64,000 nucleotides of DNA, from assembly GCA_020054475.1 (NCBI GenBank), contig JAHWGJ010000003.1, positions 30,141-94,140 on the forward strand, given 5' to 3'. This DNA is from Thermoplasmata archaeon. GTDB taxonomy: Archaea > Thermoplasmatota > E2 > DHVEG-1. This document shows positions 1-60,738 of this stretch, one piece after another (position 1 is the first letter of the stretch; each line of letters begins with the position of its first letter). The notes under the pieces were generated by a model that did no database searches, was not told where the DNA came from, and saw only the letters and a list, made by a program, of their open reading frames with translations. A program made the position numbers and the translations under genes.

Positions 1-68
1 TTTCCTTCTTCACTTTCAATAAATCCATAGCCTTTTCGGTAGTTATACCATTTTATTTTTCCTTTCAT
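1..68 (-). CDS. Cold-shock domain protein (CspA family), N-terminal part; the gene runs off the window start
   Basis: Reverse-strand translation from the ATG at 68..66 gives MKGKIKWYNYRKGYGFIESEEG, which contains the CSD RNP-1 motif KGYGFI. It is absent from the ORF track because the window edge truncates it. Confidence 0.7.
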   Translation of the reverse strand, partial: MKGKIKWYNYRKGYGFIESEEG

Positions 69-249
69 TTATTATTTTCAACTCCTCAGACACTTTAATC
101 TGGGTATACTATAAAAAACAAAAATAAAAAAATTCATAATTCGTTTAACGAAAACATGTTTTTATCTTTATTTAATGTTTTTTTAATGTTTTTAGTATAT
201 GTCCATACTATTAAATATTTTTCTAGTAATCAAATAATGAATTTTTTTG

Positions 250-801
250 TTATTTTCTTAGAAGTTTTAATAAAGTTAATTCTTTGAGTACCTTTTCAAC
301 AGCTGAATCAACATCTTCTATCTTTTTTGCACCAGCACATACTATTTTCCCAGATCCAAATAATAGCAAGGCTACTTTTGGAACACTTAATCTGTAGACT
401 AATCCTGGAAATTGTTCAGGTTCATATTCAACATTTTCTAAACCCAGTGCTACTGCAACTTCACTAAGATTAAGTTCTCCTCCTAAATCTGAAGTAGCCA
501 CTATATTCTGAATTACAATCTCATGATCTTTAAATACTTCTATACCTATTGTTTCTAGCTTACCTGCAATTATCTTTATATTTAATTTTACATCATCTAT
601 TGATTTTGCACCAGTACAATTTGCCGCACCACTAGTAAACAATAAAGTAGCTGTTTTTGGTTCTTTTAATCTATATATTAAACCGGGGAATTGTTCTGGT
701 TCATATTCAGCTTCTTTTATTGATTGTGCTATCACATCTAAATCAAGTTTATCTGCAAATTTGGTTGATGCTACAATATTTTGAATATTTATTTCCGTCA
801 T
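250..801 (-). CDS. tbp: TATA-box binding protein
   Basis: 183 aa with the two imperfect TBP repeats: NIVAS...EQFPGLIYRL...LLFTSGAANCTGAKS and NIVATSDL...EQFPGLVYRL...LLFGSGKIVCAGAK. Confidence 0.95.
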   Translation of the reverse strand: MTEINIQNIVASTKFADKLDLDVIAQSIKEAEYEPEQFPGLIYRLKEPKTATLLFTSGAANCTGAKSIDDVKLNIKIIAGKLETIGIEVFKDHEIVIQNIVATSDLGGELNLSEVAVALGLENVEYEPEQFPGLVYRLSVPKVALLLFGSGKIVCAGAKKIEDVDSAVEKVLKELTLLKLLRK

Positions 802-896
802 ATATTATCACATTTCTTTTATCATTTTAATAAAATATTCTTAAGTTAACATTAACCACGAACAAGTTTCTATATAAATAATGATTTATCAATAAT

Positions 897-1121
897 TTAT
901 TTTAAAATTTGAGATGTATAAAAAAAAAATTCTCTTGTGTAATTAAGTGCATATTTACCTGCGAAAAAAGTACTTAAAAGGATAATGAATATTTGGCGAT
1001 GGTAGTAATAAAAAAGTCTGGGCTGGTATTTTATAAGGAGTGCATCACCATCCCATCTCAACCGTGATGAGAAGTTCTCCCAGACTTTCTTCTCATTTAC
1101 CCTCATGGGATAAGAACTCAT
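897..1121 (-). CDS. Hypothetical small protein (doubtful)
   Basis: 74-aa ORF between tbp and the sirtuin gene. I recognised no motif. It overlaps an inverted repeat (1015-1022 / 1079-1086). Confidence 0.2.
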   Translation of the reverse strand: MSSYPMRVNEKKVWENFSSRLRWDGDALLIKYQPRLFYYYHRQIFIILLSTFFAGKYALNYTREFFFYTSQILK

Positions 1122-1138
1122 AATGGTTCATGATATTC

Positions 1139-1870
1139 TTATATTGATTTTGATAAAATATTTGATGCAATATCATTTATTACTAAATCTGCAATTTCAT
1201 CAAGAGGAGTTGCATCAAAATTTATTATTACTAAAAAAGAATCATTATTTTTTGCAATAACAGGCAGATTAGCTGCTGGATAGACTACTAATGAACTACC
1301 TAGAACTATAAATAGATCACAATTTTTTGATGCTTTTTCTGCTTCTAGGAGAGCTTTTGATGGTAAAGGTTCTCCAAATAATACCGTATTAGTTTTTAGT
1401 TGTCCCCCACATGAACAATATGGGGGAATTTCCTTTTGCAATAATGGAAATATTTCATCTATTGAAAATTTTTTATTACATTTTAGACAAGTTATGATTC
1501 TTGTATTACCATGAAGTTCAATAACGTTAGAACTACCAGCCATTTGATGTAAACCATCAATATTTTGGGTAATTACACAATTCAACTTACCCTTTTTTTC
1601 TAATTTAACTATTGAATAGTGGTTAATATTTGGTTTTGCTTTTTTAATAATTGGATATCTTTCATCTTTAAAATAATGCCAATAATAAGTTGGGTCTTGT
1701 AGGAATACATTTATGTTGGCATAAATATTTGGATCATATTTTGACCATAAGCCATTTGTTCCTCTATAAGTTGGAATGCCACTTTCAGATGAAATTCCCG
1801 CTCCAGTAAATACTACGATTCTATTTGATTCCTTAATTATTTCTTTTAGTTTCTGAATTTTATCATCCAT
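1139..1870 (-). CDS. cobB: NAD-dependent protein deacylase (Sir2/CobB sirtuin)
   Basis: GAGISSESGIPTYRG Rossmann motif, QNIDGLH, and a zinc-ribbon pair (CLKCNKKF ... CSCGG). The 243-aa length is typical of class-U/III sirtuins. Confidence 0.9.
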   Translation of the reverse strand: MDDKIQKLKEIIKESNRIVVFTGAGISSESGIPTYRGTNGLWSKYDPNIYANINVFLQDPTYYWHYFKDERYPIIKKAKPNINHYSIVKLEKKGKLNCVITQNIDGLHQMAGSSNVIELHGNTRIITCLKCNKKFSIDEIFPLLQKEIPPYCSCGGQLKTNTVLFGEPLPSKALLEAEKASKNCDLFIVLGSSLVVYPAANLPVIAKNNDSFLVIINFDATPLDEIADLVINDIASNILSKSI

Positions 1871-2340
1871 ACTTTAACCAATTAATCCAATATTTTTTAT
1901 AAAGCAATTATAAGTTCAATATTATGTTAATATAAAAGATATTTCAGAAATGCAAATATAGAAATAATAATTATTTCTAATAAATCATTCATTGTCTAAT
2001 TAGCCTCAATATCATATTAAACATTGTTTATTTAATTTCAACTAATAATAATACAAACGTATAGTTCAACTCTATAGACATTTGAACAATATTTAAAATA
2101 AGTAATTTTTGAAATTGTTAAAATCAACTGTTATCAAAATATTTAAAATTCAATTTTATTTGAAAAATCAAATTTTTTTAGAAAAATTTAGATTATCAAT
2201 ATTTTTAAAATAAATATAGTATTTATATAACATTTCTCCTTGTAAATTATTATAAAATATTCTAGAGAGAGAATTTCATTTTAATTGGAGAGAGAGGGAG
2301 AGATCGATAATTAAAAAATATTTCTCTCTCAAAAGATTTT

Positions 2341-2366
2341 TTAATATATATTGTTAATATATATTG
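2341..2366. repeat. 13-bp perfect tandem duplication (TTAATATATATTG x2)
   Basis: Read directly at 2341-2353 and 2354-2366, about 55 nt upstream of the probable M28 peptidase ATG. It is TATA-like. Confidence 0.6.
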
Positions 2367-2420
2367 TTAAGAAATTTTATAATATTGAACTTATATTTAT
2401 TATCGGAGAGTAGTTTTATT

Positions 2421-3752
2421 ATGATATTGAAAAAAAAGAGTATATCATTGTTACTATTTGTATTAATTATCTTTTCAACTTTAAATGTAAATAGTATTCA
2501 AATACCAGTAAAAATAGAAAAAAATAGTAATAATATGATTGAAAAAATAAAATTTAATATACGCCCTTCATTATCAGATTTAATATCAAAAGTGAATAGT
2601 ACCCTTATTGAAAAATATATCATGGATTTGCAATCTTTTGGACCTCACCCTACTGGATCTTCAACAATTGAAAAAGTAAAAACATACTTATATAATGAAT
2701 TATCAAGTATGCCAATTCAAGTTAAATATCATCAATGGAAATATGAAGATAAAACTGGAGAAAATATCATTGCAACCATAACTGGAAAAGCATCTTCTAA
2801 AAATATTATTATCGGATGTGCTCATTATGATACCATAGAAATATCACCAGGTGCAGATGATGATGGATCTGGAGTAGCTGCTATCCTAATGATGACATCA
2901 ATTCTGAGCCAATATGATCATAATTCCACAATAAAATTAATTTTATTTTCAGGAGAGGAACAAGGATTACTTGGAAGCAAAGAATATGTAAAAGAATTAG
3001 AAGAACAAGATGCCAATATAATTGGTATATTAGCTCTGGATAAAATCGGCTACACCGGTGAACAAGGAACAACAATTCGACATCATGCAGATCCAGCTTC
3101 ATCTTGGATGATAGATTTAACAGAGGAAATCACTAAAAAATACAAAGATGAAATTGATCTCAATATACAAAGACTACCTTTTGATGGTTCAAGTGATCAT
3201 AAAGCATTCGTTGATAAAGGATATTCTGGGAGCAATCTTGTTGAAGAAACATTAAATCCATACTATCATACTTCTGAGGATCTTCTAAAACATATGAATA
3301 TTTCTTATCTAAAAAAAGTATGTCAACTTGCAACATGTACAATAGCCACAATTGCATATGGAAATAGTAATCTAACAAATAATGATATTGAAATATTAAT
3401 AAAAGGAAAAAATAATAACCAATATCAAGCAAAATTAACTATAAAAATAAAAAACAAAAAATATAATTTTGATACAGCAAATCTAAGTATTACTATTGAA
3501 ATGAATCATTTATTAAGAGATGAACCAGTTAATATAAAAAAAGAATATTATCTAGTTCCTTGCATATGGAATTTTACTGAAGAAATTAAACAGGATTGGC
3601 AGTTTCATATAGGGCAACAAACATATTCAATTGGATTATTTATTCTCAAAATTTCTGTTCATGGATTAAATGATGATTTTTCAATTTCTAAAAAATATTC
3701 AACAATTGGTTTAATTTTCCCGGAATATAATTTGCTGATTATATCAAAATAA
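2421..3752 (+). CDS. Secreted M28-family aminopeptidase with a C-terminal beta-sandwich-like extension
   Basis: Has the M28 metal-ligand motifs HYDT...GADDDGSGVAAIL and LFSGEEQGLLGS. MILKKKSISLLLFVLIIF is signal-peptide-like. I prefer the ATG at 2421 (GGAGAG 8 nt upstream) over the track's TTG at 2364. Confidence 0.85.
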   Translation: MILKKKSISLLLFVLIIFSTLNVNSIQIPVKIEKNSNNMIEKIKFNIRPSLSDLISKVNSTLIEKYIMDLQSFGPHPTGSSTIEKVKTYLYNELSSMPIQVKYHQWKYEDKTGENIIATITGKASSKNIIIGCAHYDTIEISPGADDDGSGVAAILMMTSILSQYDHNSTIKLILFSGEEQGLLGSKEYVKELEEQDANIIGILALDKIGYTGEQGTTIRHHADPASSWMIDLTEEITKKYKDEIDLNIQRLPFDGSSDHKAFVDKGYSGSNLVEETLNPYYHTSEDLLKHMNISYLKKVCQLATCTIATIAYGNSNLTNNDIEILIKGKNNNQYQAKLTIKIKNKKYNFDTANLSITIEMNHLLRDEPVNIKKEYYLVPCIWNFTEEIKQDWQFHIGQQTYSIGLFILKISVHGLNDDFSISKKYSTIGLIFPEYNLLIISK

Positions 3753-3879
3753 AAAAAAAAGTAATTAGCCAATAATGAAAATTTGCAAATTAGTAGTACA
3801 TTTATTTGATAAAAAAATAAGTAAAAAATAAGAATATTTATTAATATTATTTTTTCATGCATATAATAATAATTCTTTT

Positions 3880-3901
3880 GGAGGAAAATAATATTTCCTC
3901 C
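3880..3901. terminator. Perfect 8-bp stem hairpin GGAGGAAA-ATAATA-TTTCCTCC
   Basis: Read directly. It lies 128 nt downstream of the M28 stop and 17 nt before the left copy of the 29-bp repeat. Confidence 0.3.
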
Positions 3902-3918
3902 ATATAAATAAGAATTAT

Positions 3919-3947
3919 GTTCAGGATATAATTTATATATGAAAAGC
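3919..3947. repeat. Left copy of the perfect 29-bp direct repeat GTTCAGGATATAATTTATATATGAAAAGC (putative attL)
   Basis: Identical to 11899-11927. The flanking bases differ on both sides. Confidence 0.85.
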
Positions 3948-3982
3948 GGTCCTGAAGAAAGCTTTTAATTTTAAGATTATCC

Positions 3983-4010
3983 ATTCAAAACAAAAAACTT
4001 TGTTTTGAAT
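3983..4010. terminator. 12-bp perfect-stem hairpin ATTCAAAACAAA-AAAC-TTTGTTTTGAAT
   Basis: Read directly. It lies 30 nt downstream of the stop of the minus-strand gene 4040..4297. Confidence 0.35.
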
Positions 4011-4039
4011 CCTCCTGAGAGACAAAAGAAAAAATATAT

Positions 4040-4297
4040 TTATTTTATTTCTAAAATAAATGGAGAAAAAAATATTACAAGTCCAAATAAACCCAAAGTT
4101 ATACCTATTATACTATAGAGGGCAAGAAAGTATACAACAAGAAGATATATTCCAACTATCATAGAAATGAGTCCAATACTATGAACCATTAGTTTAACAT
4201 AGATACTCTTTCTACAAATATCTCTTATCCACATATAGATTATGCCAAAAAACCAAGCTCTCTGCCCCTTTGAACCATATATTGCCATTATTTTCAA
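4040..4297 (-). CDS. Small integral membrane protein (2-3 TM), hypothetical
   Basis: 85 aa with hydrophobic stretches (IGLISMIVGIYLLVVYFLALYSIIGITLGLFGLVIFF). It lies 8 nt downstream of the beta-propeller gene. Confidence 0.45.
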   Translation of the reverse strand: MKIMAIYGSKGQRAWFFGIIYMWIRDICRKSIYVKLMVHSIGLISMIVGIYLLVVYFLALYSIIGITLGLFGLVIFFSPFILEIK

Positions 4298-4305
4298 CCT
4301 ATCCT

Positions 4306-5826
4306 TTATTTTAATATTACAAATGGTCCAAAAATAAAACCATTTCTTGTTTCACTAATATCAAGAATATTAACTGTTACTTCAAATGGTCCAAGACCAA
4401 AAAAGAATCCTGTTGTAACAATTATTTCACTTTGTGGTAATAATTCTGAAATTGTTGTGGTTGTTTCTCCACCTGCTATCATCCAAAAAGAATCTAAAAT
4501 AATGCTGATCTCTAAATCATGAATTGATGAATCTCCATTGTTTTTAATAATAATTTCAACTCCAATCCCTCCATTGATTTCTATTGTAATATTATTATTC
4601 ACTTCGCCATGTCCAAATGCAAAAAGATCACCATAAAGATAACCAGAATCTACATATTTTGATCCAATATAGACAGTTCCATGTAAATCTATTGCAGGTG
4701 ATGAATACTGGTAATCATTAGTTGCAATATTTTTTCTCCATCTAAGAGTTCCATCGTGATTTAAAGCGATGAGATTTCCACCCCAACCACCATGTTTTGT
4801 AGCTACGAAATAAATGTTTCCGTCAGAGGATATTGCATATGTTCTTGATGTGCATTCATATTCATATGGTTCCCAACCTTGATAAATCCATTTTATACTA
4901 CCATCGGGGTTAACTGCATAAAAATAAAAACCTCCAATATAGATAGTTCCATCTGAACCGATTGCTGGTGTATCAGAACTACCTGTATCGATTTCAGTTC
5001 GCCATTTCATTGTACCGTTGGGATAGATAGCATATAAATAATCATCGTGTGAAGAAAAATAAATAATGCCATCATCATCTATAGAAGGGTTACTTAATGA
5101 ATCTCCTGCTCTAAAACGCCATAATAATGAGCCATCATTTGAACTAAGTGCATATAAATACTTATTATTAGAAGTAATATAAATTGTATTATTATTTGCT
5201 ATAGCTGGTGTTGAATATATCCAATCTCCTGTATCATAATGCCATTTCTCAGTTCCATTGGGATATAAAGCATATACTCGCCCATATGAATCAGGACCAA
5301 TTGATCCAAAATAAATAATTCCATCATCACTAATGGTTGGTGAACCCCAAATACTTCCTTCAGCATCATATTTCCATCTTAAAGTACCATCTAGATTAAT
5401 AGCATAAAGTGAATCATCTAAAGATCCAACATAGATACATTCATTCTCATAAAGTGAAGGAGAAGATAAAATCCAACCATTACAATCAAATTTCCATTTT
5501 TCTGTTCCATCTGGATTTATTGCATATAGATAATGATCCATACAACCTATGTATATAATTCCATTATTGTCAATAACAGGTGATGAATGAAAACCTGAAT
5601 CAGCAAGTAATTTCCATTTGATAAGACCAGAATTGTCAGCAGTACTATATAGGCTTTGACTCGTATGACGGTTATCATGCCCATATGTAGACCATGGTGA
5701 ATCCATCGGGCCATCAATAATACCATTTGATGGTTTTATAGATTCATTATCTAATCCAATAACAATTGGATGGAGTGATAATAGAATAAAAAGAAGAATA
5801 ATTAAAAATGAGGTTATTTTATTCAA
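4306..5826 (-). CDS. Secreted PQQ-like (BamB-like) beta-propeller repeat protein with a C-terminal CARDB-like domain ending GPFVILK
   Basis: Signal peptide, then about 8 repeats of the pattern DG(T/S)xKW(K/R)(F/Y)...SSPxIxxDGxIYxGSxDxxLYA(I/L). The C-terminal 100 aa is homologous to the 40084..40512 product. Confidence 0.8.
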   Translation of the reverse strand: MNKITSFLIILLFILLSLHPIVIGLDNESIKPSNGIIDGPMDSPWSTYGHDNRHTSQSLYSTADNSGLIKWKLLADSGFHSSPVIDNNGIIYIGCMDHYLYAINPDGTEKWKFDCNGWILSSPSLYENECIYVGSLDDSLYAINLDGTLRWKYDAEGSIWGSPTISDDGIIYFGSIGPDSYGRVYALYPNGTEKWHYDTGDWIYSTPAIANNNTIYITSNNKYLYALSSNDGSLLWRFRAGDSLSNPSIDDDGIIYFSSHDDYLYAIYPNGTMKWRTEIDTGSSDTPAIGSDGTIYIGGFYFYAVNPDGSIKWIYQGWEPYEYECTSRTYAISSDGNIYFVATKHGGWGGNLIALNHDGTLRWRKNIATNDYQYSSPAIDLHGTVYIGSKYVDSGYLYGDLFAFGHGEVNNNITIEINGGIGVEIIIKNNGDSSIHDLEISIILDSFWMIAGGETTTTISELLPQSEIIVTTGFFFGLGPFEVTVNILDISETRNGFIFGPFVILK

Positions 5827-7408
5827 AAAAAACCTCCTTTAAACAATTATAATGAAACCAATATAGTTGATGAAAATATTGATTAAATCTTGGCATTCGC
5901 ACTTCTAATGATGCCCATTCTCCCTCAACGTCATGCATATCTTTAGCCTTTGCACTAATAGTATACGATCCCCTTATATTCCATGTATGTGGTAATATTA
6001 TTTCTTCACTTGAGTTATATGGTCCGATCCAGCTAGTATTAGTGTTATCGCCCCAGTCTACCCAGAGGTAAACCTCATCATAATTAATATCAAATACAAT
6101 AAATGTATATTTTTGTTCTTCCCCAATCTTACCTACTGAAGATCCATTTATTCCTGGTTTCTCAGGAGGCGAATTATTTTCAACACTACCAAATGCAAAA
6201 AGATTGCCATATATAGACCCAAATTCTCCAAATTGAGAGCCAACATATACTGTACCATCTTTATCAATTATAGGAGATGAAAATTGATCATCAATAGCAG
6301 ATATTGTTTTTCGCCATCTAAGAATTCCATCTTCATTCAAGGCTATAAGATCTCCACCCCAACCACCATGTTTTGTAGTTACAAAATATACAATATTATC
6401 AGCAGAAATTGCATATGTTCTGGATGTACACTCATATTCATAAGGTTCCCAACCTTGATAAATCCATTTAATACTACCATCTGGATTAACTGCATAAAAA
6501 TAAAAACCACCTATGTATATTGTACCATCTATAGCAATTGCGGGTGTATCAGAACTACCCGTGTCAATTTCAACTCGCCACTTCATAGTTCCATTTGGAA
6601 AAACTGCATATAAATAATCATCCAGCGATGCAACATAGATTATTCCGTCGTCTCCCACAGTTGGACTACCTAACCCATCTCCAGTACGAAAACGCCAAAA
6701 CAATGATCCATTTAAAGGAGAAAGAGCATATAAATACTTATCATTTGAAGTAATATAAATAGTTCCATCCTCGCCTATTGCAGGTGTTTCATAAATAGAG
6801 TTGTCAGTATTAAACTGCCATTTTTCAGATCCATTAGGATATAATGCATAAATTTTTCCATTACTCTCTGAACCAAGAGAACCAAAATAAATAATACCTT
6901 CCTCATCAATAGTTGGTGAACCCCATATACTCCCTTCAGCATGAAATTTCCATTTTAAAGATCCATTTGGATAAATAGCATATAGATTATTATCAAAAGA
7001 TCCAACATAGATTGTTCCATCTTCTGCAAGAGCTGGTGAAGATAATATCCAACCACGGCAATTATAATGCCATTGTTCAGTTCCATCCTGATTAATAGCA
7101 TATAGAAAACCATCTTTACAACCAATATAGAGTACTCCATCATTATCAATAACTGGTGATGAATGAAAACCTGAATTTGCAAGAAATTTCCATTTTATTA
7201 ATCCAGGATTATCAGCTGTATTGTATGGACTTTGACATGTATGGCGGTTATCATGGCCAAAAGTTGGCCATGCTGAGTCCATCATACCATCATTAGTATA
7301 ATTTGATGGTTTTATCAACTTATTATCTAACCCTATAACCATTGGATGAATTGATAATAATACAAACAGAAGAATAATCCCCCAGATGATGGATTTGTTT
7401 TTCATCAT
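5819..7408 (-). CDS. Secreted PQQ-like beta-propeller repeat protein with a C-terminal PKD-like domain (paralog of 4306..5826)
   Basis: Same repeat pattern. It shares a 42-aa identical run with the neighbouring gene. The C-terminal segment PPEKPGINGSSVGKIGEEQKYTF...WGDN...HTW...GSYTISAKAKD is PKD-like. It overlaps the downstream paralog by 8 nt. Confidence 0.8.
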   Translation of the reverse strand: MMKNKSIIWGIILLFVLLSIHPMVIGLDNKLIKPSNYTNDGMMDSAWPTFGHDNRHTCQSPYNTADNPGLIKWKFLANSGFHSSPVIDNDGVLYIGCKDGFLYAINQDGTEQWHYNCRGWILSSPALAEDGTIYVGSFDNNLYAIYPNGSLKWKFHAEGSIWGSPTIDEEGIIYFGSLGSESNGKIYALYPNGSEKWQFNTDNSIYETPAIGEDGTIYITSNDKYLYALSPLNGSLFWRFRTGDGLGSPTVGDDGIIYVASLDDYLYAVFPNGTMKWRVEIDTGSSDTPAIAIDGTIYIGGFYFYAVNPDGSIKWIYQGWEPYEYECTSRTYAISADNIVYFVTTKHGGWGGDLIALNEDGILRWRKTISAIDDQFSSPIIDKDGTVYVGSQFGEFGSIYGNLFAFGSVENNSPPEKPGINGSSVGKIGEEQKYTFIVFDINYDEVYLWVDWGDNTNTSWIGPYNSSEEIILPHTWNIRGSYTISAKAKDMHDVEGEWASLEVRMPRFNQYFHQLYWFHYNCLKEVFFE

Positions 7409-7446
7409 TACCTCCCAATATAATATTAGATGTTCTGATATAAAAT

Positions 7447-7467
7447 CATTTGTAGCATTATTACTTG
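7447..7467 (-). promoter_or_regulatory. Shared island motif, copy 1 (plus strand CATTTGTAGCATTATTACTTG)
   Basis: Identical 21-mer to 8218-8238. It lies 39 nt upstream of the 7408 start. On the sense strand it is followed by a TATA-like TTTTATAT. Confidence 0.5.
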
Positions 7468-7549
7468 CTTTAATCCAACGCCTTCTGATAAGCTCCAGTA
7501 TTTAGCTAATATTACCCCGTATTCTTTATTTGATATAATCAGACTAAAT

Positions 7550-7598
7550 CTGAGGGTTTCTGATAAATTAGAATAATCAGGCTTAGAATAGCCCTCAG
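7550..7598 (-). terminator. Nested hairpin (CTGAGGG...CCCTCAG enclosing CTGAT...ATCAG)
   Basis: Read directly. It lies about 90-140 nt downstream of the stop of gene 7689..8129. Confidence 0.3.
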
Positions 7599-7688
7599 CT
7601 TATATTTGATTTAGATCTTAATATCTATGAATATATACTTTCAAATGATTTTTTTATCTATTTTGGATGCAGATAATGAATAATTGAT

Positions 7689-8129
7689 TTATAGGCCATC
7701 GTCATTGTTTTCAATAATATCAAATGCTTCCCCAAAGGCTATTAGCGTTTCATAAGTATAAAGACCATAATTGATAACCCCTAATGCAAAATTTAACAAA
7801 TTCAATGAATTTCTAAGCATACCTTGCTTTAGAAATAACAAGAGACAACTTGCAGATATAATACCAACCATAAGTGAAACATAATCAGCCATATCATCCA
7901 ATCCGCCTTCGAGAGGCCCATCAGGGTCAGTCCAATTTAGTTTGAGAATATTAAAATCAACCTGTTTCTCTTGCAGTTCCTCTATTCTATCAAGAATAGA
8001 ATTTTTCAATTCATCCTCATCAAAATCACAGATGTAAAGATATTTTTCACCTTCTATCGCAGAAACGTTTGGAATCATCACAATTAAAAATACTATGATT
8101 AAGCAAATTATTGATTTTATTTTCTTCAT
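7689..8129 (-). CDS. Hypothetical secreted/membrane protein
   Basis: MKKIKSIICLIIVFLIVMIPNVSA signal peptide plus C-terminal TM segments. The ATG at 8129 is preceded by GGGAGGT. The track's start at 8159 is a TTG. Confidence 0.5.
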   Translation of the reverse strand: MKKIKSIICLIIVFLIVMIPNVSAIEGEKYLYICDFDEDELKNSILDRIEELQEKQVDFNILKLNWTDPDGPLEGGLDDMADYVSLMVGIISASCLLLFLKQGMLRNSLNLLNFALGVINYGLYTYETLIAFGEAFDIIENNDDGL

Positions 8130-8212
8130 TTTATTTACCTCCCTTACGTAGACTCCCAAATATTATAATGTAATTCCAATTTAAAAGATTAACGCAGGTT
8201 AACCAGTATATT

Positions 8213-8238
8213 TGCAACATTTGTAGCATTATTACTTG
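8213..8238 (-). promoter_or_regulatory. Shared island motif, copy 2, including the dyad TGCAACATTTGTAGCA
   Basis: 21-mer identical to copy 1, plus a 5-nt extension that completes the imperfect palindrome TGCnACA-N2-TGTnGCA. It lies 84 nt upstream of the ATG at 8129. Confidence 0.5.
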
Positions 8239-8395
8239 GTGAATATTATGCTTAATGTTAGTTTTTATTTAGGCATAATTTAGTTATAGTTTAGGTGAAT
8301 ATAATGTTAATGTTTAACATGATTTTTTGATTGTATTAGTGATTTTATTAAACGAATTTTAATAGAAAAAATAGTGATTGTTGATGAAATTTTCC

Positions 8396-10294
8396 TTATC
8401 CAATAATACCCCAATCATCACAAATACCGAAACAGAAGGGCAATGATAGTAAAAACAATCCTCTTGCATTAATAAGTCGGATAAATTCTCCTGGATTTCT
8501 TGTCTGTATTTCATTTTCCCATATATAAAAGGGTTTACTTAATACCTCTAAATCAACATAATTCTCACCAGGTTCTAACTGTATAAGTTTCACATCAACA
8601 TCAAATCCAAAAACAAAAATGAACCCAAATGGCATATTTGATTTGCTTTTCGGCATAGTAATGCTTAATGGATCTGACCATGGACTCTCATCGCCATAGT
8701 TATCCTTAGATTTCACCTTTATAGAATAAGTACCATTTGCAGACCAGATATGTGATGAACTGACAGATAAACCTGAATCATATGGGCCAAGCCATCCTGA
8801 ATTTGTGCTGTCATCCCATTCAATCCAGTAGAAAACCTGATCTTCATCAGAATCTTCTGTTGATACAATATATGTATATGAATCGCCTGTTTTTCCTGAT
8901 GTAGGTCCATTAATTATAGGTTTATTAGGTGGGTTATTACTAGAAGTTATAACAACTGTTTTTGATATTGAAAATGCACTTTGACCGCTATTTGAATCTT
9001 CTGCTATTACTTGTACATCATATGTTCCAACTGATGACCATGAATGAGACCTAGTATCTACACTTCCACTACTTAAGAAACTACTCCATTCATCAATAGT
9101 ATCATCACCATTCCAATCCCATCCATATTTAACAGAATCATCATCCGGATCAGTTGTGCTAGTGGAAAACGATAATGATGACCCCATATTGCCTGAGCTG
9201 GGTCCTGAAGGTTTGCTAGGAGTATTTGGTGGATTATTAGCACCAGCAATTATTATCACTAATGTCGAAGAAAAACCACTTTGAGCTCCATGTTCATCTT
9301 CTGCTTTGGCTCTAAGATATCTAGTTCCAGTTCCGTAAAATGTAATTTTCACAGTACATGTACTAGAAGATGGATAAAAAGTTGTCCAATGACTTGGATC
9401 AATAATTCCATCATTATTAAAATCAAAACCATATTTTACATTATCACCATCTGGATCTATAGTACTTGTTATATACGTATATTGGGTTCCTTCTGTTACT
9501 ATTGTTGGACCATTTGGTTTACTTGGAGTATTAGGGGGTGTATTACTAGTTTCTTCTCCTTGTTGTAAACGTGTTGTACCAGTTGTCGTTCCAGAGAAAC
9601 CCTCAAGAATTGATCCAGGGCACCCTTCAAACTCGATTTGATATGTAATATCAAAGAAACTATCAACATTAAAATCACCAGAAATAAATTCAGTTAAAAT
9701 GAATTGGCCTGGACTCGGGAGACCATAATCCGAACCTGCTATTACTCTAAACGTACAAAAATCAGGATCACCAAATATTTCCCCATATAACTGAAAAATG
9801 TTACTTGGGAACATCTGAATTGGATCGCCCGGAGTTCGAGGTCCAGTATGAACTTCTAATGATACAGGTACTGCAAGATTTCGATTGAATCCAGCTAGAC
9901 TATCAGTACCTGAAACAGCCAGCTGAAGAGTAGCATCAAAAGTATGAACTTCGCCACCCAGTAGACCACCAGGATAGCTTAATATGTTATAAAAATTATC
10001 AAGTGTTGGATCCAGTTCCATTGTTGTTCCAGGAGATAGACCGTCAATGATATACATTGGATCATCAGGTGCAATATAAGGACACATTGCAGGTAAATCA
10101 ATTGTCCCTAATCCATTATCTGGCATGATGCATGAGTCAGTAAGTGATATAATTCCAACCACATTATCAAATAAGATATCCTGAGTCATTATATTGATCC
10201 CAAGAATTTCAGGTTTCTCATTGAATGCAGAAATAGTTACATTTGTCAATACGAGCGTAATACAAACTAAAATAATTATCAATTTCTTTTTCAT
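8396..10294 (-). CDS. Secreted protein with an unknown N-terminal domain, three PKD-like domains and a C-terminal extension
   Basis: Signal peptide MKKKLIIILVCITLVLTNV. Three repeats each open with (N)NPPN(T/K)PSKP(N/S)GP and contain WGD/WDW...G(T)Y motifs typical of PKD folds. Confidence 0.75.
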   Translation of the reverse strand: MKKKLIIILVCITLVLTNVTISAFNEKPEILGINIMTQDILFDNVVGIISLTDSCIMPDNGLGTIDLPAMCPYIAPDDPMYIIDGLSPGTTMELDPTLDNFYNILSYPGGLLGGEVHTFDATLQLAVSGTDSLAGFNRNLAVPVSLEVHTGPRTPGDPIQMFPSNIFQLYGEIFGDPDFCTFRVIAGSDYGLPSPGQFILTEFISGDFNVDSFFDITYQIEFEGCPGSILEGFSGTTTGTTRLQQGEETSNTPPNTPSKPNGPTIVTEGTQYTYITSTIDPDGDNVKYGFDFNNDGIIDPSHWTTFYPSSSTCTVKITFYGTGTRYLRAKAEDEHGAQSGFSSTLVIIIAGANNPPNTPSKPSGPSSGNMGSSLSFSTSTTDPDDDSVKYGWDWNGDDTIDEWSSFLSSGSVDTRSHSWSSVGTYDVQVIAEDSNSGQSAFSISKTVVITSSNNPPNKPIINGPTSGKTGDSYTYIVSTEDSDEDQVFYWIEWDDSTNSGWLGPYDSGLSVSSSHIWSANGTYSIKVKSKDNYGDESPWSDPLSITMPKSKSNMPFGFIFVFGFDVDVKLIQLEPGENYVDLEVLSKPFYIWENEIQTRNPGEFIRLINARGLFLLSLPFCFGICDDWGIIG

Positions 10295-10385
10295 ATTTTT
10301 ACCTCCATTACCCTTTATTCCTCTGATTATTATAATGCATATCTTATTATAAAAATGTGACGTTTGTTAACAAAATATTCTTTAA

Positions 10386-10411
10386 TGCAACTTTTGTAGC
10401 ATTTTAACTTG
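10386..10411 (-). promoter_or_regulatory. Shared island motif, copy 3 (TGCAACTTTTGTAGCATTTTAACTTG)
   Basis: 18/21 identity to copies 1 and 2, with the same dyad TGCAAC-N4-GTAGCA. It lies 91 nt upstream of the ATG at 10294 and 31 nt downstream of the flavodoxin-fragment stop. Confidence 0.45.
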
Positions 10412-10441
10412 CTGATTATGAATGAGATGGATAGGATTATA

Positions 10442-10729
10442 TTAGTTTTGCTTCAGTTTTTGAGCAAATTCTTTTGCATCGTTGATGTCCTCATCATTAG
10501 GTCTTCCTCTATTAGCAAACAAAAACTTACCCTTGCAAAAGAATTTTCCCTTGATGGAAGCATCCTTGGTAATAAGTAAATTTTCCATTTTTCTACATTC
10601 AAATCCTTCCCCTGAACCTGAAGTACCAAACAAAGCAACATTTCTTGATTTGAAATTATTATCTTTAATAAATTTCATCATAATTTTTGCAGGTTTACCA
10701 CCATAGCATCCAGAACCTAAATAAACCAA
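10442..10729 (-). pseudogene. Flavodoxin-family fragment (C-terminal two-thirds only)
   Basis: VYLGSGCYGGKP...VALFGTSGSGEG...RPNDEDINDAKEFAQKL matches the middle and C-terminal parts of short flavodoxin-like proteins. The N-terminal beta1/phosphate-binding loop is missing. The ORF opens with TTG and starts 8 nt from the integrase stop. Confidence 0.5.
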
Positions 10730-10736
10730 ACATTCA

Positions 10737-11768
10737 TTATTCAGTTTTGCATCTTGGACACTCGTTTGGTATTAATGGATTTTTAACAATCTCAGGTTTC
10801 ACATAACCTTGTTTTTCAACCTGAAGCAGAGTATTAGCTGCATCACGTCCACTAAGATGTATATACACCTCAGGCATACTTGAACTGCCAGTCCATCCTG
10901 CTAGAATCTTAAGAGTTGATTCATTCAAACCCTTCTTAGCTAAATCTGTAAGACGAGCATGGCGAAGTTTATGAGGACTAACTTTCTTTTTAATATCCGC
11001 ATCTTCAGCAGTGAATCGTACAATTCCATACACGCCACTAATCGTTAATCTCTTACCCCAAGTTGGAGTTGATTCAGAAACCCATAGAGGATATTTCTTA
11101 CTTAAACCAGAATTATTAAGTTTGTCTTTATATGGATGTATATCAAGCCACATTGAAAGATAATTTTGAGAGTTAATGAATCTAATAATTCTCTTACCAG
11201 TCTTGCCATCTACAACAATAAATGAGCCATTTTCATCAAACTCGATATCGTTAATATTCATCCCAACAAGTTCACCAACTCTCACGGCACTATCATATAA
11301 AACTGAGATTATTGCTTTTCTTTGCACAGATTCTGCTTTGTTTATCATTAATTTTACTTCTTCTGGATTCAGGACTCCATTAGGAAAATCATTACCAGAA
11401 TTTGCATAACCTGTTTTAATCCACCTAACACACTCAGGATAATCATCAGTGTTATACAGCCATTTGAAAAAATTCTTCAAAATTGATTTACATATAGAAA
11501 GTGAGCTTGGTTTTAATTCGTTTTGTCGTTGAATTAAATATTCTTTAATGTCTTGTTTAGTAATTTCAATAAATGGTTTGTTAAAATATTTTGCAAATTT
11601 AATTAATTGCAATAATTTATTTTCACAAGTCTGATATGCTGAATTATTAAGAGAATTATCCTCATAATATTCTTTTAAAACATCTCTATGTTTAGCGGGT
11701 AAACTATCTAGCCTACTCAATAGAGCTTCCGCTGATTTGTACATGATTTCACCAACAAAATTCATCAA
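10737..11768 (-). CDS. Tyrosine recombinase / phage-type integrase (XerC/D-like)
   Basis: Catalytic signature: ...DSAVRVGEL (Arg I), HKLRHARLT (His-x-x-Arg II), LAGW (Trp/His III) and EVYIHLSG (Tyr nucleophile). It also has an N-terminal SAM-like DNA-binding domain. Confidence 0.85.
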   Translation of the reverse strand: MMNFVGEIMYKSAEALLSRLDSLPAKHRDVLKEYYEDNSLNNSAYQTCENKLLQLIKFAKYFNKPFIEITKQDIKEYLIQRQNELKPSSLSICKSILKNFFKWLYNTDDYPECVRWIKTGYANSGNDFPNGVLNPEEVKLMINKAESVQRKAIISVLYDSAVRVGELVGMNINDIEFDENGSFIVVDGKTGKRIIRFINSQNYLSMWLDIHPYKDKLNNSGLSKKYPLWVSESTPTWGKRLTISGVYGIVRFTAEDADIKKKVSPHKLRHARLTDLAKKGLNESTLKILAGWTGSSSMPEVYIHLSGRDAANTLLQVEKQGYVKPEIVKNPLIPNECPRCKTE

Positions 11769-11898
11769 ATAATTCTACTCGAAAAAAGGAGTAGAAAACC
11801 TTTAAACGTAATAGTATTAGTAGGTTATATTCCTTTCGGTAGATAAAAATATTCTATGGGAGAGAAACCAATATTCCCTTATTAAAATTAAAAGTTGG

Positions 11899-11927
11899 GT
11901 TCAGGATATAATTTATATATGAAAAGC
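11899..11927. repeat. Right copy of the perfect 29-bp direct repeat (putative attR)
   Basis: Identical to 3919-3947. It ends 35 nt before the rps12 ATG. Confidence 0.85.
11912..11919 (+). promoter_or_regulatory. TATA box (TTTATATA) of the S12-S7-EF2 operon
   Basis: Archaeal TATA consensus, 44 nt upstream of the rps12 ATG and preceded by an A-rich BRE-like GGATATAA. GGGTGA lies 5 nt before the ATG. Confidence 0.55.
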
Positions 11928-11962
11928 TGTATACTGCCTTACTCTTCTCTAAAGGGTGAACT

Positions 11963-12394
11963 ATGGGTAAAGGTATAAATTCAGCAAGGAAGCTTAAAAA
12001 AAGCAAAAGAAAGCAAAACTGGAATGACAGATATTACAAAAAAAGGGTTTTGCACTTAAAAGAAAAAGCAGATCCGCTTGAAGGTACAGCTCAGGCTAGA
12101 GGCATTGTACTTGAAAAAGTTGGAATTGAAGCAAAACAACCTAATTCTGCTATTCGAAAGTGTGTAAAAGTACAACTAATTAAAAATGGAAGACAAATTA
12201 CAGCTTTTGCCCCAGGCAATAATGCTATTGGATTTATTGATGAGCACGATGAAGTAATGGTCGAAGGTATTGGCGGTAGAATGGGAAGAAGTTTTGGAGA
12301 TATTCCCGGTGTAAGATTTAAAGTAATTAAAGTGAATGATGTATCTCTAAATCAAATGGTAAAAGGTAAAATTGAGAAGGCAATGAGAAGATAG
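11963..12394 (+). CDS. rps12: 30S ribosomal protein uS12
   Basis: 143 aa with [19 protein letters not shown]...ITAFAPG..., the typical archaeal S12 core. Confidence 0.95.
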
Positions 12395-12396
12395 AT

Positions 12397-12990
12397 ATGG
12401 CAGTAAAAAAAAGTGAAGGAAAAAATATTCATTTTTTCCCAATTTTAGCAAAATACGATAAGGATAAAATCAAGATAGAAGATAAAGGATTAGAGCGATA
12501 TATAAATCTTGATAGCGAGAATATATATCTTGGTGCAATTTTTGCAAATAAAATGTTTTCTAAACAAAAGGTGCCAGTTGTTGAACGTTTAATTAACAAT
12601 TTAATGAGAACTGAAAAATATAATGGTAAGAAAGTATCCTCTTATAAAGTTGTTAAATCAGCTTTTGAAGTAATTGAAAAACGTACAAAATCTAATCCAA
12701 TTCAGGTTCTTATTAATGCTATTGAACACGCTGCACCAAAAGAGGAAACAACTAGACTACGTTTTGGTGGAATATCCGTCCCAAAAGCAGTTGATACAGC
12801 ACCCCAAAGACGTTTAGATATTGCATTACGAAATATTTGTAAAGGTGTAGTAAATAGCTCACATAAGAATAAAAAAAGTGTAACTCTTTGCCTTGCAGAT
12901 GAGCTAATAAAAGCATCAAAAAATGATCCTTCATCTTTCGCTGTTGCAAAGAAAAATGATTTGGAAAGAGTCGCAAAATCTGCTAGATAA
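12397..12990 (+). CDS. rps7: 30S ribosomal protein uS7
   Basis: 197 aa following S12 by 2 nt. Contains ...NLMRTEKYNGKK...AIEHAAPKEETTRLRFGGISVPKAVDTAPQRR. Confidence 0.93.
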   Translation: MAVKKSEGKNIHFFPILAKYDKDKIKIEDKGLERYINLDSENIYLGAIFANKMFSKQKVPVVERLINNLMRTEKYNGKKVSSYKVVKSAFEVIEKRTKSNPIQVLINAIEHAAPKEETTRLRFGGISVPKAVDTAPQRRLDIALRNICKGVVNSSHKNKKSVTLCLADELIKASKNDPSSFAVAKKNDLERVAKSAR

Positions 12991-13041
12991 GTATACTATA
13001 TTTATTTGAAGAAATTATTAGAATTATAAGAGATGATTAAA

Positions 13042-15240
13042 ATGGGTAAGAAAGAAGATAATATCAAGAAAGCTAAAAATTTAATGAATAAATTAGAATA
13101 TATTCGTAATATTGGTATTGCTGCACATATTGATCACGGTAAAACTACTCTATCTGATAATCTATTAGCAGGTTGTGGAATGATGAGTGAAGATCTTGCG
13201 GGTAAACAATTAGTACTGGATTTTGATGAACAGGAACAGGACAGAGGAATAACAATAAACACAGCTTCTGCTTCAATGGTACATGATTTTAGAGGAAAAG
13301 AATATCTTATAAATCTTCTTGATACTCCAGGACATGTTGATTTTGGTGGTGATGTAACTCGTGCAATGCGTGCTGTTGATGGATGTGTTGTAGTTGTATG
13401 TGCAGTTGAAGGTGCTATGCCACAAACAGAAACTGTAGTTAGGCAAGCATTGAAAGAAAAAGTTAAACCTATTTTATTTATAAATAAAGTTGATAGATTA
13501 ATTAATGAATTAAAAGTAACTCCTGAAGAAATGCAACAACGTTTTGTAAAAATAATTGCGAAATTCAATGATCTTGTAAATAAGATGGTTCCTGAAGAAT
13601 TTAAAAATAAATGGAACGTAAAAGTCGAAGATGGCAGTGTTGCATTTGGATCAGCATATTATAATTGGGCAATATCTGCACCATATATGAAAACCTCCGG
13701 ATTAAGTTTTAAAGATATTTATGACTATTGTGATAAAAATGATCAAAAAACCCTTTCGAAAAAAACGCCAATTCACGGAGTTTTACTGGATATGGTTGTT
13801 GATCATTGTCCTTCACCAAGAGAAGCCCAAAAATATAGAATACCCCACATTTGGCGTGGTGATCAAGAAAGCGAACTTGGTAAAAGTATGATTCAAACAA
13901 AAGAAATTGGACCTCTTGCACTTATGGTTACAAAAATAGTTATGGACCCTCATGCTGGTGAAGTTGCTGTTGGTAGAATGTATAGTGGAAAAATAGCTAG
14001 AGGACAAGAAGTATACGTTGTTGGAATGCCAAGATTAAATCGAATACAACAAGTAAATTTAATGGTTGGTGCTGATAGAATTCCTGTAGAATACGTAAGT
14101 GCTGGTAACATTGTAGCTTTAACGGGGATTAAAGATGCTTTTGCAGGAAGCACAGTAACAGATGATCCAGATTCCGAACCATTTGAGCGTATAGTACATG
14201 TATCTGAACCAGTAGTTACAGTTGCTGTTGAAGCAAAACATACAAAAGATTTACCAAAATTAATTGAAGTTCTCCGGATGGTATCAAAAGCTGATCCAAG
14301 TATTCAGGTAAATATTAACCAAGAAACTGGAGAAAATTTAATGTCAGGAATGGGTGAACTTCACCTTGAAATTACTGAATATAGAATAAAAAATGAATAT
14401 GGTGTTGAAATAGTTTGTTCAGAACCAATAGTCGTTTATCGTGAATCCATAGCTAAAAAAACACCCCATAAATTCGAAGGTAAATCCCCAAATAAACACA
14501 ATAGATTCTATATCCAAGCAGAACCACTTCCCGAAAATATTGTAAAATCATTATATAATAATGAAATACCAAATAATGTTAAAAAACATAAAAAAGATGT
14601 TATAAAAATTTTACAAGAATTAGGTATGGATAAAGAAACCGCTAAAGGAACATTTGCAATTCAAGGATTGAATTTATTAACTGATGTTACAAAAGGAATT
14701 CAATATCTATCCGAAACTCATGAACTAATAGCACAATCCTTTGAAGAAGTAATGAAAAGTGGACCAATTGCCTCTGAACCTTGCCAAGGAATGCTAATAA
14801 GACTAGTAGATGCAAAGCTTCACGAGGATGCTATACACAGAGGTCCAGCACAGGTTATACCCGCAGTTCGTAATGCAGTTTACGGAGCTATAGTAAGTTC
14901 AGATCCAATTCTTCTTGAACCTATGCAAAAAGTATTTATTAGTACTCCTCAAGATCTAATGGGGGATGCTTCAAAAGAACTTAACCAAAGAAGATCTGTT
15001 GTAAAAGATATGCTATCTGAAAGAGATATGGTAAATATAGATGCGAAAGCCCCTGTTGCTGAGATGTTTGGATTCGCATCATCGATTCGATCAGCAACTG
15101 GTGGTAGAGTACTATGGAATACTGAAAATCTTGGGTTTGAACCTTTACCTAGAAATTTACAAAATCAAATAGTTACACAAATTAGAGAGAGAAAAGGATT
15201 AAAACCAGATCCCTTCCCTCCAGAATATTATATGGATTAA
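13042..15240 (+). CDS. fusA: Translation elongation factor aEF-2
   Basis: G-domain motifs [17 protein letters not shown] and NKVDR. The diphthamide-loop His sits in [12 protein letters not shown] prefer the [10 protein letters not shown] start at 13042 over the track's 13033. Confidence 0.95.
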
Positions 15241-15317
15241 AATCCATATTTTTTCTCTATTTTAAATAAATCATAAATTATTAGATAGGCAAATATATTG
15301 TATAATATGGTGAAAAG

Positions 15318-15674
15318 ATGGAGCGAGGAACTATTAATATTAACAAAAATTTTGAACTAGAATATCGATATTATGATAGGGATAAGAGTTTTAAATATTT
15401 CAATAGAAAATTTGAAATTTATCTTGTAGAAAAAAAAAGTTTAAAGAAAAATTATGTTTTGCATATGGATAATTGCGATTTATCTGAAGGAAGATGGTCG
15501 CCTCATATTCATAAATTACCTAACGTAAATAAAAAATATTATTTTGCGGTATCAACGCTTAATTGGAATGATGTAAAAAATAATCTTGCAGATTGCATTA
15601 TTAATGAAATTGGAGATAAAAATCAGATTAATGTAAAAAAGGCTATTGGAAAATTATCATCTCCCAAATTATAG
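15318..15674 (+). CDS. Hypothetical protein
   Basis: 118-aa ORF between EF-2 and MCM. I recognised no motif. Confidence 0.35.
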   Translation: MERGTININKNFELEYRYYDRDKSFKYFNRKFEIYLVEKKSLKKNYVLHMDNCDLSEGRWSPHIHKLPNVNKKYYFAVSTLNWNDVKNNLADCIINEIGDKNQINVKKAIGKLSSPKL

Positions 15675-15698
15675 ATCATTTCATTAAAGAATTATATT

Positions 15699-59977: not shown

Positions 59978-60265
59978 ATGGCTAAATTAATTTGGAATAG
60001 ATGTCCAAAACATAGAATGGATATGATAAGAGAGCATGATGCAGAATTACGGCCTTTTTATTATTGTCCAATATGTGGTTTCTACAGGTATTATGAAGGA
60101 AATGAGGGATATGATAATAGTTTAATATCAAAAGAAAAAAACGAATTCAATTCATTTATAAAAATAAATGGAAATGGCCCACTATGCCCTCAGTGTAAGG
60201 GCAATTATTTAGCTCCCTTCGAACAGGATGGATGGTATTGTTCCAGATGTAAATATAGAAGTTAA
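59978..60265 (+). CDS. Double zinc-ribbon protein, hypothetical
   Basis: Two zinc-ligand pairs: CPKH...CPIC and CPQC...CSRC, in 95 aa. Confidence 0.5.
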   Translation: MAKLIWNRCPKHRMDMIREHDAELRPFYYCPICGFYRYYEGNEGYDNSLISKEKNEFNSFIKINGNGPLCPQCKGNYLAPFEQDGWYCSRCKYRS

Positions 60266-60498: not shown

Positions 60499-60738
60499 TT
60501 GAAAAAGGATTCTATAATAATTCTATTTTTATCATTACTGATAATATGTTATCTAAGAAAGAAACCTAAAGAGAAATTTAGAAAAACAATAGAGTTAATC
60601 GATGAGAAAACAAATGAAACAATTAGAATAATTCGTTTTAAAAATCCAAAAGATTTTGATTCATTTTTAGAAGATTTCAGATTAATGAGATACCCTGGTT
60701 ATAGTTGGAGATATGGAGATAAAACTAAAAAACAGTGA
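60499..60738 (+). CDS. Hypothetical protein with an N-terminal TM anchor
   Basis: 79 aa. Starts at a TTG preceded by GGGAGA. Confidence 0.35.
   Translation: MKKDSIIILFLSLLIICYLRKKPKEKFRKTIELIDEKTNETIRIIRFKNPKDFDSFLEDFRLMRYPGYSWRYGDKTKKQ

Follow-up and report, generated by a model that had tools for sequence, protein, structure and literature searches.

A probable integrative element remnant at the predicted core promoter of the rps12-rps7-EF2 operon in a Thermoplasmata archaeon

The stretch of DNA analyzed here, 64,000 nucleotides of a Thermoplasmata archaeon genome (contig JAHWGJ010000003.1, positions 30,141 to 94,140; the window), harbors an 8-kb island that carries a tyrosine integrase gene at one end and lies directly upstream of the rps12-rps7-EF2 operon. 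We conclude that this island is very probably a site-specific integrative element of the lambda/pNOB8 type, inserted in the core promoter of that operon. A preliminary description of the window, made from its sequence, had proposed an integrated or remnant element at a ribosomal-protein promoter rather than at a tRNA gene, and this proposal is now backed by empty sites in relatives, by an integrase that is not XerA, and by a repeat restricted to a single locus.

The direct repeat and the rps12 locus in relatives

The island is bounded by two perfect copies of GTTCAGGATATAATTTATATATGAAAAGC (the 29-mer), found on the plus strand in direct orientation at 3919-3947 and 11899-11927. Both positions and the differing outer bases agree with the preliminary description, the bordering bases being t and g on the 5' side and g and t on the 3' side. 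No further match occurs in the 64 kb at up to three mismatches, with none expected from shuffled sequences, and a 20-nucleotide (nt) inner version is likewise found only twice. Between the end of the right copy and the rps12 ATG (position 11963) lie 35 nt, again as described. Two exact 29-nt repeats 7,980 nt apart, with an integrase gene inside and beside one of them, constitute a lambda-type att arrangement. The 64-kb window contains no tRNA gene, and an Rfam scan of positions 1-16000 returned no RNA family match, so that neither repeat is covered by one. The att sites, the insert, and the flanking host genes are as follows.

3919-3947, plus strand: att site distal to the integrase gene, composed of host arm, 29-nt core, and element arm (P'); exact repeat
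11899-11927, plus strand: att site proximal to the integrase gene, composed of element arm (P), 29-nt core, and host arm; exact repeat, with the TATA-like TTTATATA at 11912-11919, and presumably the rps12 promoter now in use
3948-11927, no strand: inserted segment of 7,980 bp (element plus one core copy), the removal of which gives a gap-free alignment with the empty-site contig L047
11963-15240, plus strand: rps12-rps7-EF2 target operon, host DNA; also found after the single 29-mer in L047 and L054-L057
2364-3752, plus strand: M28 peptidase gene of the host, which flanks the insertion on its other side (Pfam, 4.5e-36); its 3' end lies directly upstream of the single 29-mer in L047

A scan of JGI metagenome contigs for the 29-mer gave one match, Ga0114922_10075284 (L047; 2,911 nt). 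This contig harbors the 3' end of an M28 peptidase gene, intergenic sequence like that of the window, a single 29-mer, and then rps12, rps7, and EF-2, which is exactly the order that the preliminary description had predicted for an empty site. When positions 3948-11927 are taken out of the window, L047 aligns to the remainder from end to end (2,911 nt) at 97.66% identity and with zero gaps, and the left flank of the integrase-distal copy is continuous with the rps12 flank in this contig. We sampled the rps12 locus in further assemblies via relatives of EF-2. L055 (84% DNA identity) and L056 and L057 (88%) carry neither integrase nor island; each has one variant of the 29-mer, with three to four changes at its ends, 35 to 36 nt before rps12 and with a host-type arm upstream of it. 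Two findings had been named in the preliminary description as arguing against an insertion. One was relatives with the same island genes and no repeats or integrase; L047, L055, L056, and L057 are without the island or an integrase. The other was use of the 29-mer as a generic promoter; it is found twice in the window and once per relative locus, always before rps12. The 29-mer has no match in IMG/VR or in the GTDB representative genomes, among which the source species is not included.

The central 24 nt of the repeat, AGGATATAATTTATATATGAAAAG, are invariant and single-copy before rps12 in six loci (L001, L047, L054, L055, L056, and L057). Sequence upstream of these 24 nt varies among the relatives, and the downstream leader is invariant in all six. 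Since the 24-nt core is conserved and single-copy in relatives, the core of the 29-mer would correspond to the native rps12 promoter region, and these comparisons point to the uninterrupted rps12 site as the ancestral state.

Occupied and decayed forms of the site are also found. L001, from a public run, shows the occupied junction of integrase, 29-mer, and rps12 again, at 99.98% identity to the window. On the rps12 side, L054 matches the window at 97% identity. It keeps the element-type P arm and the exact 29-mer, with the integrase absent; its homology to the window ends 17 nt before the integrase ATG and is followed by a truncated, unrelated small gene. From this arrangement, L054 appears to be a remnant at the rps12 site that arose by deletion-type decay.

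All of these sequences were assembled from metagenomes, and 29 nt is less than the length of many reads but more than small k-mers. Another origin for the repeat or the indel would be assembly error, with the window or L047 misjoined at a short AT-rich repeat. We consider such an artifact very improbable, because the occupied junction is reproduced in L001, the uninterrupted site recurs in four separate assemblies (L047, L055, L056, and L057), and L054 and a more distant species, L002 (described below), independently carry an element-type P arm at the same place.

The EF-2 protein of the host is 83 to 85% identical to those of Thermoplasmatales archaeon SG8-52-1 and SG8-52-4 and 99% identical to that of another Thermoplasmatota genome. 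On these identities the host is a sediment Thermoplasmatota related to the SG8-52 genomes and thus of the marine benthic group D kind. Among the loci sampled, the interval between the TBP gene and rps12 varies: it holds Sir2 and M28 peptidase genes in the window (897-3752) and in L047, versus a short remnant of the Sir2 end only in L055 (7910-8359) and L056 (8406-8655). In L054, the TBP gene is a different one (75% DNA identity) that faces the other way, and a PAC2 gene is also present.

Arms, dyad, and predicted promoter context of the core

The sequences around the two core copies comprise host-derived (B) and element-derived (P and P') arms and a hairpin.

3848-3918, plus strand: host B arm, the native upstream sequence of the rps12 promoter, now separated from rps12; arranged as in L047, and 82 to 84% identical to L055 and L056
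11828-11898, plus strand: element P arm, homologous to the B arm: a divergent version, carried by the element, of the host region that precedes the rps12 promoter
3950-3974, plus strand: P' arm, an inverted copy of 11882-11906 (25 nt, 84% complementary)
11882-11906, plus strand: P-arm half of the inverted repeat, overlapping the first 8 nt of the core and pairing with 3950-3974
3983-4010, no strand: hairpin with a 12-bp stem and T runs (RNA fold -15.4 kcal/mol, z = -2.8)

The length of 29 nt first given for the repeat holds for its exact part, but the repeat extends upstream with lower similarity: the P arm (11828-11896) and the B arm (3848-3916) match at ≈67% over ≈70 nt (local score of 23 versus 9.4 ± 1.8, reached in none of 2000 shuffles). 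On the other side of the core, the two flanks show no similarity. Since the P arm is homologous to the B arm, the element brings its own version of the rps12 upstream region, placed before rps12. The attP site reconstructed from the two junctions reads ...TTAAAATTAAAAGTTGG + 29-mer + GGTCCTGAAGAAAGC... and is a dyad with 14-bp and 7-bp arms, both centered on the TATATAT of the TATA element (score of 17 versus 8.0 ± 1.4, none of 5000 shuffles; DNA fold z = -3.5). Tyrosine recombinase sites require dyad symmetry (PMC8371274), and the reconstructed attP possesses the symmetry expected of a recombination site.

The sequence TTTATATA starts 51 nt before the rps12 ATG, and a GGGTGA motif lies 4 to 9 nt before this ATG; in L002, TTTAAATA is found at the position that corresponds to the TATA-like element of the window. 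Archaeal TATA elements are AT-rich and located ≈25 to 27 nt upstream of the transcription start. With this spacing, transcription of rps12 would start near 11941 with a leader of ≈22 nt, and the 29-mer would span about -43 to -15, the predicted region of the B recognition element (BRE) and TATA element. A promoter function is further supported by the conservation of the 29-mer core across relatives. TATA-like motifs upstream of the genes of the window do not bear on this point, as eight strict matches in 55 genes are too few to inform. Transcription from the orphan copy at 3919-3947, which still has the host arm upstream, would run toward the 3' ends of the cargo genes and meet the hairpin at 3983-4010. 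Judged from its fold and position, this hairpin probably terminates transcription of the cargo genes and insulates them from the orphan promoter.

These features fit a simple scheme. The integrase of the island would recombine the attP of the element with the chromosomal attB, with the crossover falling inside the shared 29-bp core over the predicted BRE/TATA region, to give two core copies, of which the rps12-side copy would gain element DNA upstream. As the P arm is a diverged copy of the host upstream sequence, the operon would retain a complete promoter context, and the other core copy would keep the original upstream region of the host and point into the far end of the element, where the hairpin and its T run probably stop transcription. 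A later deletion would have taken the zinc ribbon and tail of the integrase and, with them, the 5' part of a flavodoxin gene; the cargo that remains consists of genes for secreted or surface proteins that share an island-specific upstream motif.

The integrase, its family, and a second element at rps12

The integrase gene is described by a single line.

10737-11768, minus strand: tyrosine integrase of 343 codons, truncated at the C terminus (Pfam PF00589, 1.6e-20, plus an N-terminal SAM-like domain)

Translation probably begins at the ATG at 11744, to which the invariant Met of the homologs corresponds; the gene thus begins 130 to 154 nt from the right copy of the repeat depending on the start codon, in line with the 130 nt originally given. 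The catalytic residues R-K-HxxR-W-Y are intact (R163, K189, H266, R269, W292, and Y302), all in invariant or nearly invariant alignment columns, and the alignment with XerA structures extends through the catalytic Tyr. Full-length homologs are mostly 370 to 480 aa long and harbor a nearly invariant CPRC...C..C zinc ribbon followed by a tail of ≈100 aa. The window integrase ends at CPRCKTE, with the C-terminal zinc ribbon and tail absent, and a tblastn search finds no copy of the missing C terminus elsewhere in the window. In integrases of the SSV type, the att site is located within the ORF, and integration splits the gene. Assignment to this type is not supported, as the core precedes the integrase gene, whose N-terminal and catalytic parts form one uninterrupted ORF; a sequence search of the PDB returns Xer-type and integron integrases only.

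If this recombinase were XerA, the dimer resolvase of the chromosome, the 29-mer would be a duplicated dif-like site, and the island would be host DNA or an element that exploits Xer. The best curated model match is indeed archaeal XerA, the best solved structures are the XerA proteins of P. abyssi and T. acidophilum, and the AT-rich palindromic center of the 29-mer (ATATAA-T-TTATAT) is superficially dif-like. The scores nonetheless make a XerA identity, which the preliminary description had listed as fatal to its proposal, extremely unlikely. The integrase reaches 116.3 bits with the XerA equivalog model (NCBIfam NF040815), below the ortholog threshold of 220 bits, and only ≈48 bits with solved XerA structures, including Thermoplasma XerA from the same phylum; an archaeal virus integrase is much closer, at 160 bits. 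The closest named viral relatives are the integrases of a Methanomicrobiales tailed virus and of Archaeoglobales pleomorphic viruses. Homologs occur patchily across many archaeal phyla (Thermoplasmatota, Aenigmatarchaeota, Iainarchaeota, Woesearchaeota, Methanosarcinales, Methanocellales, Methanoperedens, and Asgard archaea), some contigs bear two of them, and the gene is missing from this locus in four relatives (L047, L054, L055, and L056). Finally, the 29-mer lacks a pair of 11-bp arms around a 6-bp spacer, and the dif sites of Thermococcales are reported not to adjoin xerA (PMC2958812). A dif-like site had been entertained on the basis of an ATAA-TTTATA-TATG resemblance and the XerA matches; it was rejected because of the scores relative to their thresholds, the way the family is distributed, the polymorphic presence of the gene, and the missing 11-6-11 architecture.

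Members of the wider integrase family are bounded by direct repeats that overlap tRNA genes, namely tRNA-Met in L006 (30 nt), tRNA-Leu in L023 (54 nt), and tRNA-Arg in L027 (24 nt), and in L023 and L027 the integrase gene lies no more than ≈150 nt from one of the tRNA repeats. A homolog of 51% identity stands at the head of an element that also encodes a DUF5906 primase-helicase, DndB, and a DNA methylase, and three homologs are found at the ends of IMG/VR viral contigs. By these associations, the family is one of mobile-element integrases and not a chromosomal resolvase. One sample yields two contigs (L059, 9692-10822; L060, 955-2085) in which a homolog of 57% identity is broken into two ORFs, one SAM-like (94 aa) and one catalytic (273 aa), which suggests a decayed or duplicated copy.

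A second element is found at rps12 in L002, a species whose housekeeping DNA is only 74% identical to that of the window. Here, a 70%-identical integrase occupies the same divergent position beside rps12-rps7-EF2-MCM; it is full length (≈461 codons) with zinc ribbon and tail present, and the contig stops 0.85 kb past it. The promoter region of L002 is homologous to that of the window and differs at 8 of 29 positions. As the two window copies are identical at all 29 positions, the duplication in the window is far younger than the split of the two species. This comparison bears on a further alternative, in which the island is an old resident and the relatives have lost it by chance homologous deletion between segmentally duplicated promoters. 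A related integrase beside rps12 in a 74%-identical species could be old inheritance, the window and L002 integrases are both damaged, and deletion-type decay at the locus is found in L054. The identity of the window copies speaks against it, as do the single sharp edge of the repeat, which abuts an inverted-repeat arm and so gives a dyad attP; the position of the integrase 130 to 154 nt from one copy, comparable to that in two tRNA-targeting relatives; and the B-type arms in L047, L055, and L056, which mark the uninterrupted arrangement as ancestral. On balance, we judge old residence with chance loss to be unlikely, and site-specific insertion is preferred.

Sister integrases (54 to 55% identical; L003, L048, and L050) are found in three assemblies in divergent orientation beside the start of a G1PDH-like Fe-ADH gene, which hints that targeting of 5' ends may be a trait of this integrase clade; the start of the G1PDH-like gene could be a second promoter target. 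No second att copy occurs near the close homologs within the 10 kb available (L002, L003, L048, L050, L058-L060, and L051-L053), and neither a repeat nor an empty site was found for the sister clade at the G1PDH-like gene. On the strength of the second element at rps12 in L002 and the sister clade beside the G1PDH-like gene start, we raise, as a speculative and rather doubtful extension, that this lineage moved from tRNA genes to the core promoters of essential operons while carrying a replacement upstream region, a promoter swap. If this is true, the element controls the upstream region of a ribosomal-protein operon, with the native strong promoter of the host parked at the far end. The sister-clade loci (L003, L048, L049, and L050, from assemblies of several samples) combine the Fe-ADH/G1PDH-like gene with UPF0179, and genes for secreted NosD/PKD proteins come after the integrase, which in L003, L048, and L050 lies at about 10001.

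Cargo, decay, and relation to known systems

As the preliminary description had noted, all ORFs between the two copies are on the minus strand. Its list of genes is also borne out, with the exception that the flavodoxin gene is not the only truncated one, as the 3' end of the integrase gene is missing as well. The remaining features of the island are as follows.

10442-10729, minus strand: flavodoxin-like ORF, 5'-truncated, abutting the integrase stop (Pfam Flavodoxin_3, positions 44-113 of 160, E 0.0016)
8396-10294, minus strand: secreted PKD-repeat protein, 632 aa (Pfam PKD, 6.8e-13; no virus-family match)
7689-8159, minus strand: small signal-peptide/membrane protein, 156 aa, no family match
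5819-7408, minus strand: PQQ/BamB-type beta-propeller, paralog 1 (Pfam PQQ_2, 2.2e-37)
4306-5826, minus strand: PQQ/BamB-type beta-propeller, paralog 2 (Pfam Beta-prop_ACSF4, 1e-46; PQQ_2, 7e-28)
4040-4297, minus strand: 85-aa membrane protein, the last gene before the integrase-distal end, no family match
7447-7466, 8218-8237, and 10391-10410 (the last with three mismatches), minus strand: 20-nt motif AAGTAATAATGCTACAAATG, upstream of cargo genes

The motif AAGTAATAATGCTACAAATG has only these three matches in the 64 kb, located 40 to 115 nt before the starts of the genes for beta-propeller 1, the 156-aa protein, and the PKD protein; it is probably a shared, island-specific regulator-binding site. 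Its restriction to the upstream regions of cargo genes thus marks the cargo as one unit. The flavodoxin fragment also matches NCBIfam BilS (positions 43-119 of 160), and the homology between the window and L002 ends exactly at 10736, the boundary between integrase and flavodoxin, which to all appearances is an internal deletion junction. Because an integrase without its zinc ribbon abuts a truncated flavodoxin and no mobility genes are left, the element reads as a decayed remnant. The tetranucleotide distance of the island, 0.24, is the largest of any 8-kb segment of the window (others, 0.08 to 0.22; overlap at most half), and its GC content is 0.325 versus ≈0.28 elsewhere in the window. This composition fits a donor of similar base composition and is not strong evidence alone.

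Several points weigh against the island being an integrative element inserted at a promoter. No contig in IMG/VR or the JGI metagenomes contains an excised circle or P-core-P' junction, and in the JGI collection a single metagenome contig carries the 29-mer. At strain level the empty site is known from that one short contig, where assembly could in principle have produced a chimera by collapsing the two repeat copies; this is less likely because more distant relatives also show empty sites. The composition of the island differs only mildly from that of its flanks, and secreted PKD and beta-propeller proteins are of a type common in such archaea. A PHROGs scan reveals no replication, transfer, or virion genes in the island; the only matches are to integrase and generic beta-propeller families, with no hallmark virus genes. 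The window integrase may be inactive, with its zinc ribbon lost, so that the element may or may not still be able to excise, and the L002 integrase contains an in-frame stop at a conserved Trp (LAG*SGSS, about 10850-10855), which may reflect recent pseudogene formation, an error in sequencing, or recoding. That the 29-mer acts as a promoter is inferred from geometry and conservation. Against these stand the precise indel relative to L047 and the other relatives, the homologous arms, and the dyad, and a site-specific insertion, presumably made by this integrase, remains our reading of the locus.

Nearly all described archaeal integrative elements use tRNA genes, and few use intergenic or coding sites. 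We know of no case in which an archaeal element at an intergenic or coding site was tested for an effect on neighboring genes. The island resembles class II/pNOB8-type archaeal elements that target tRNA genes in its SAM-like plus catalytic integrase, in the intact gene beside att, and in repeats that equal the core; like them, it carries a replacement copy of the displaced host sequence, which in those elements is the tRNA 3' end. It differs in that the target is the predicted BRE/TATA promoter of a protein operon and the replacement is the upstream promoter context, and in that integrases of its family end in an additional zinc ribbon and tail, which the window copy has lost. A 2021 review of archaeal tyrosine recombinases includes few non-tRNA att sites, either intergenic (PsiM100) or coding and with recombination untested, and describes none of them as a promoter target (PMC8371274). 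The PsiM100 prophage of Methanothermobacter wolfeii likewise pairs an archaeal integrase with an AT-rich intergenic attB; unlike in PsiM100, the core of the island falls on what is predicted to be the promoter of an essential operon, and homologous upstream DNA comes with the element. The statement in the preliminary description that promoter targeting would be unusual in archaea therefore holds for the promoter target but not for the mechanism, as intergenic att sites were already known (PMC8371274).

Streptococcal integrative elements, mobilizable or conjugative, target the 3' ends of rpsI, rpmG, rplL, and rpmE, and decayed elements and accretions are common among them (PMC5357655). The island shares with these an integrase specialized on a conserved ribosomal-protein locus, and the remnant in L054 matches this pattern; those elements, however, are bacterial, insert at 3' ends, and carry mobilization genes, none of which are seen in the island. 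The nearest structures, the curated model, and the same catalytic residues are shared with XerA/dif (PMC2958812), from which the island differs in a gene that is variably present and adjoins its site, and in a site that is duplicated around an 8-kb insert. What sets the island apart is the predicted core promoter of an essential, highly expressed operon as target, combined with an element-borne upstream replacement; the mechanism is ordinary lambda type. Empty, occupied, and decayed states are all present in natural relatives, which makes this a well-defined case, one that extends the logic of targeting what is conserved and repairing what breaks from tRNA 3' ends to promoters. It provides a system for asking how a tyrosine recombinase and TBP/TFB share one DNA site, and it documents mobile elements in the little-known relatives of the SG8-52 sediment genomes within the Thermoplasmatota; no paper on such elements came up in a literature search on Thermoprofundales integrases. 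The 29-bp site together with a full-length integrase of the family could serve as an integration tool for related archaea.

We record some further observations on the window and its relatives. The beta-propeller paralogs (4306-7408) share 79% identity over a 300-nt block, show a 120-nt blade periodicity, and overlap by 8 nt, and the pair is a recent tandem duplication within the island. In an exact-protein look-up, the window beta-propeller and M28 peptidase were not on record, probably owing to start-codon differences. In L054, the element-type arm is fused at 2654-2795 to a 5'-truncated homolog (84% DNA identity) of window positions 60590-60731. The corresponding window ORF (60499-60738; 79 aa), with its homolog in L054, has a conserved ...MRYPGYSWR... 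tail, and small zinc-ribbon ORFs adjoin this module in both the window (59978-60265) and L054 (2377-2529). The MRYPGYSWR-tail ORF and the zinc-ribbon ORF may form another small mobile or variable module.

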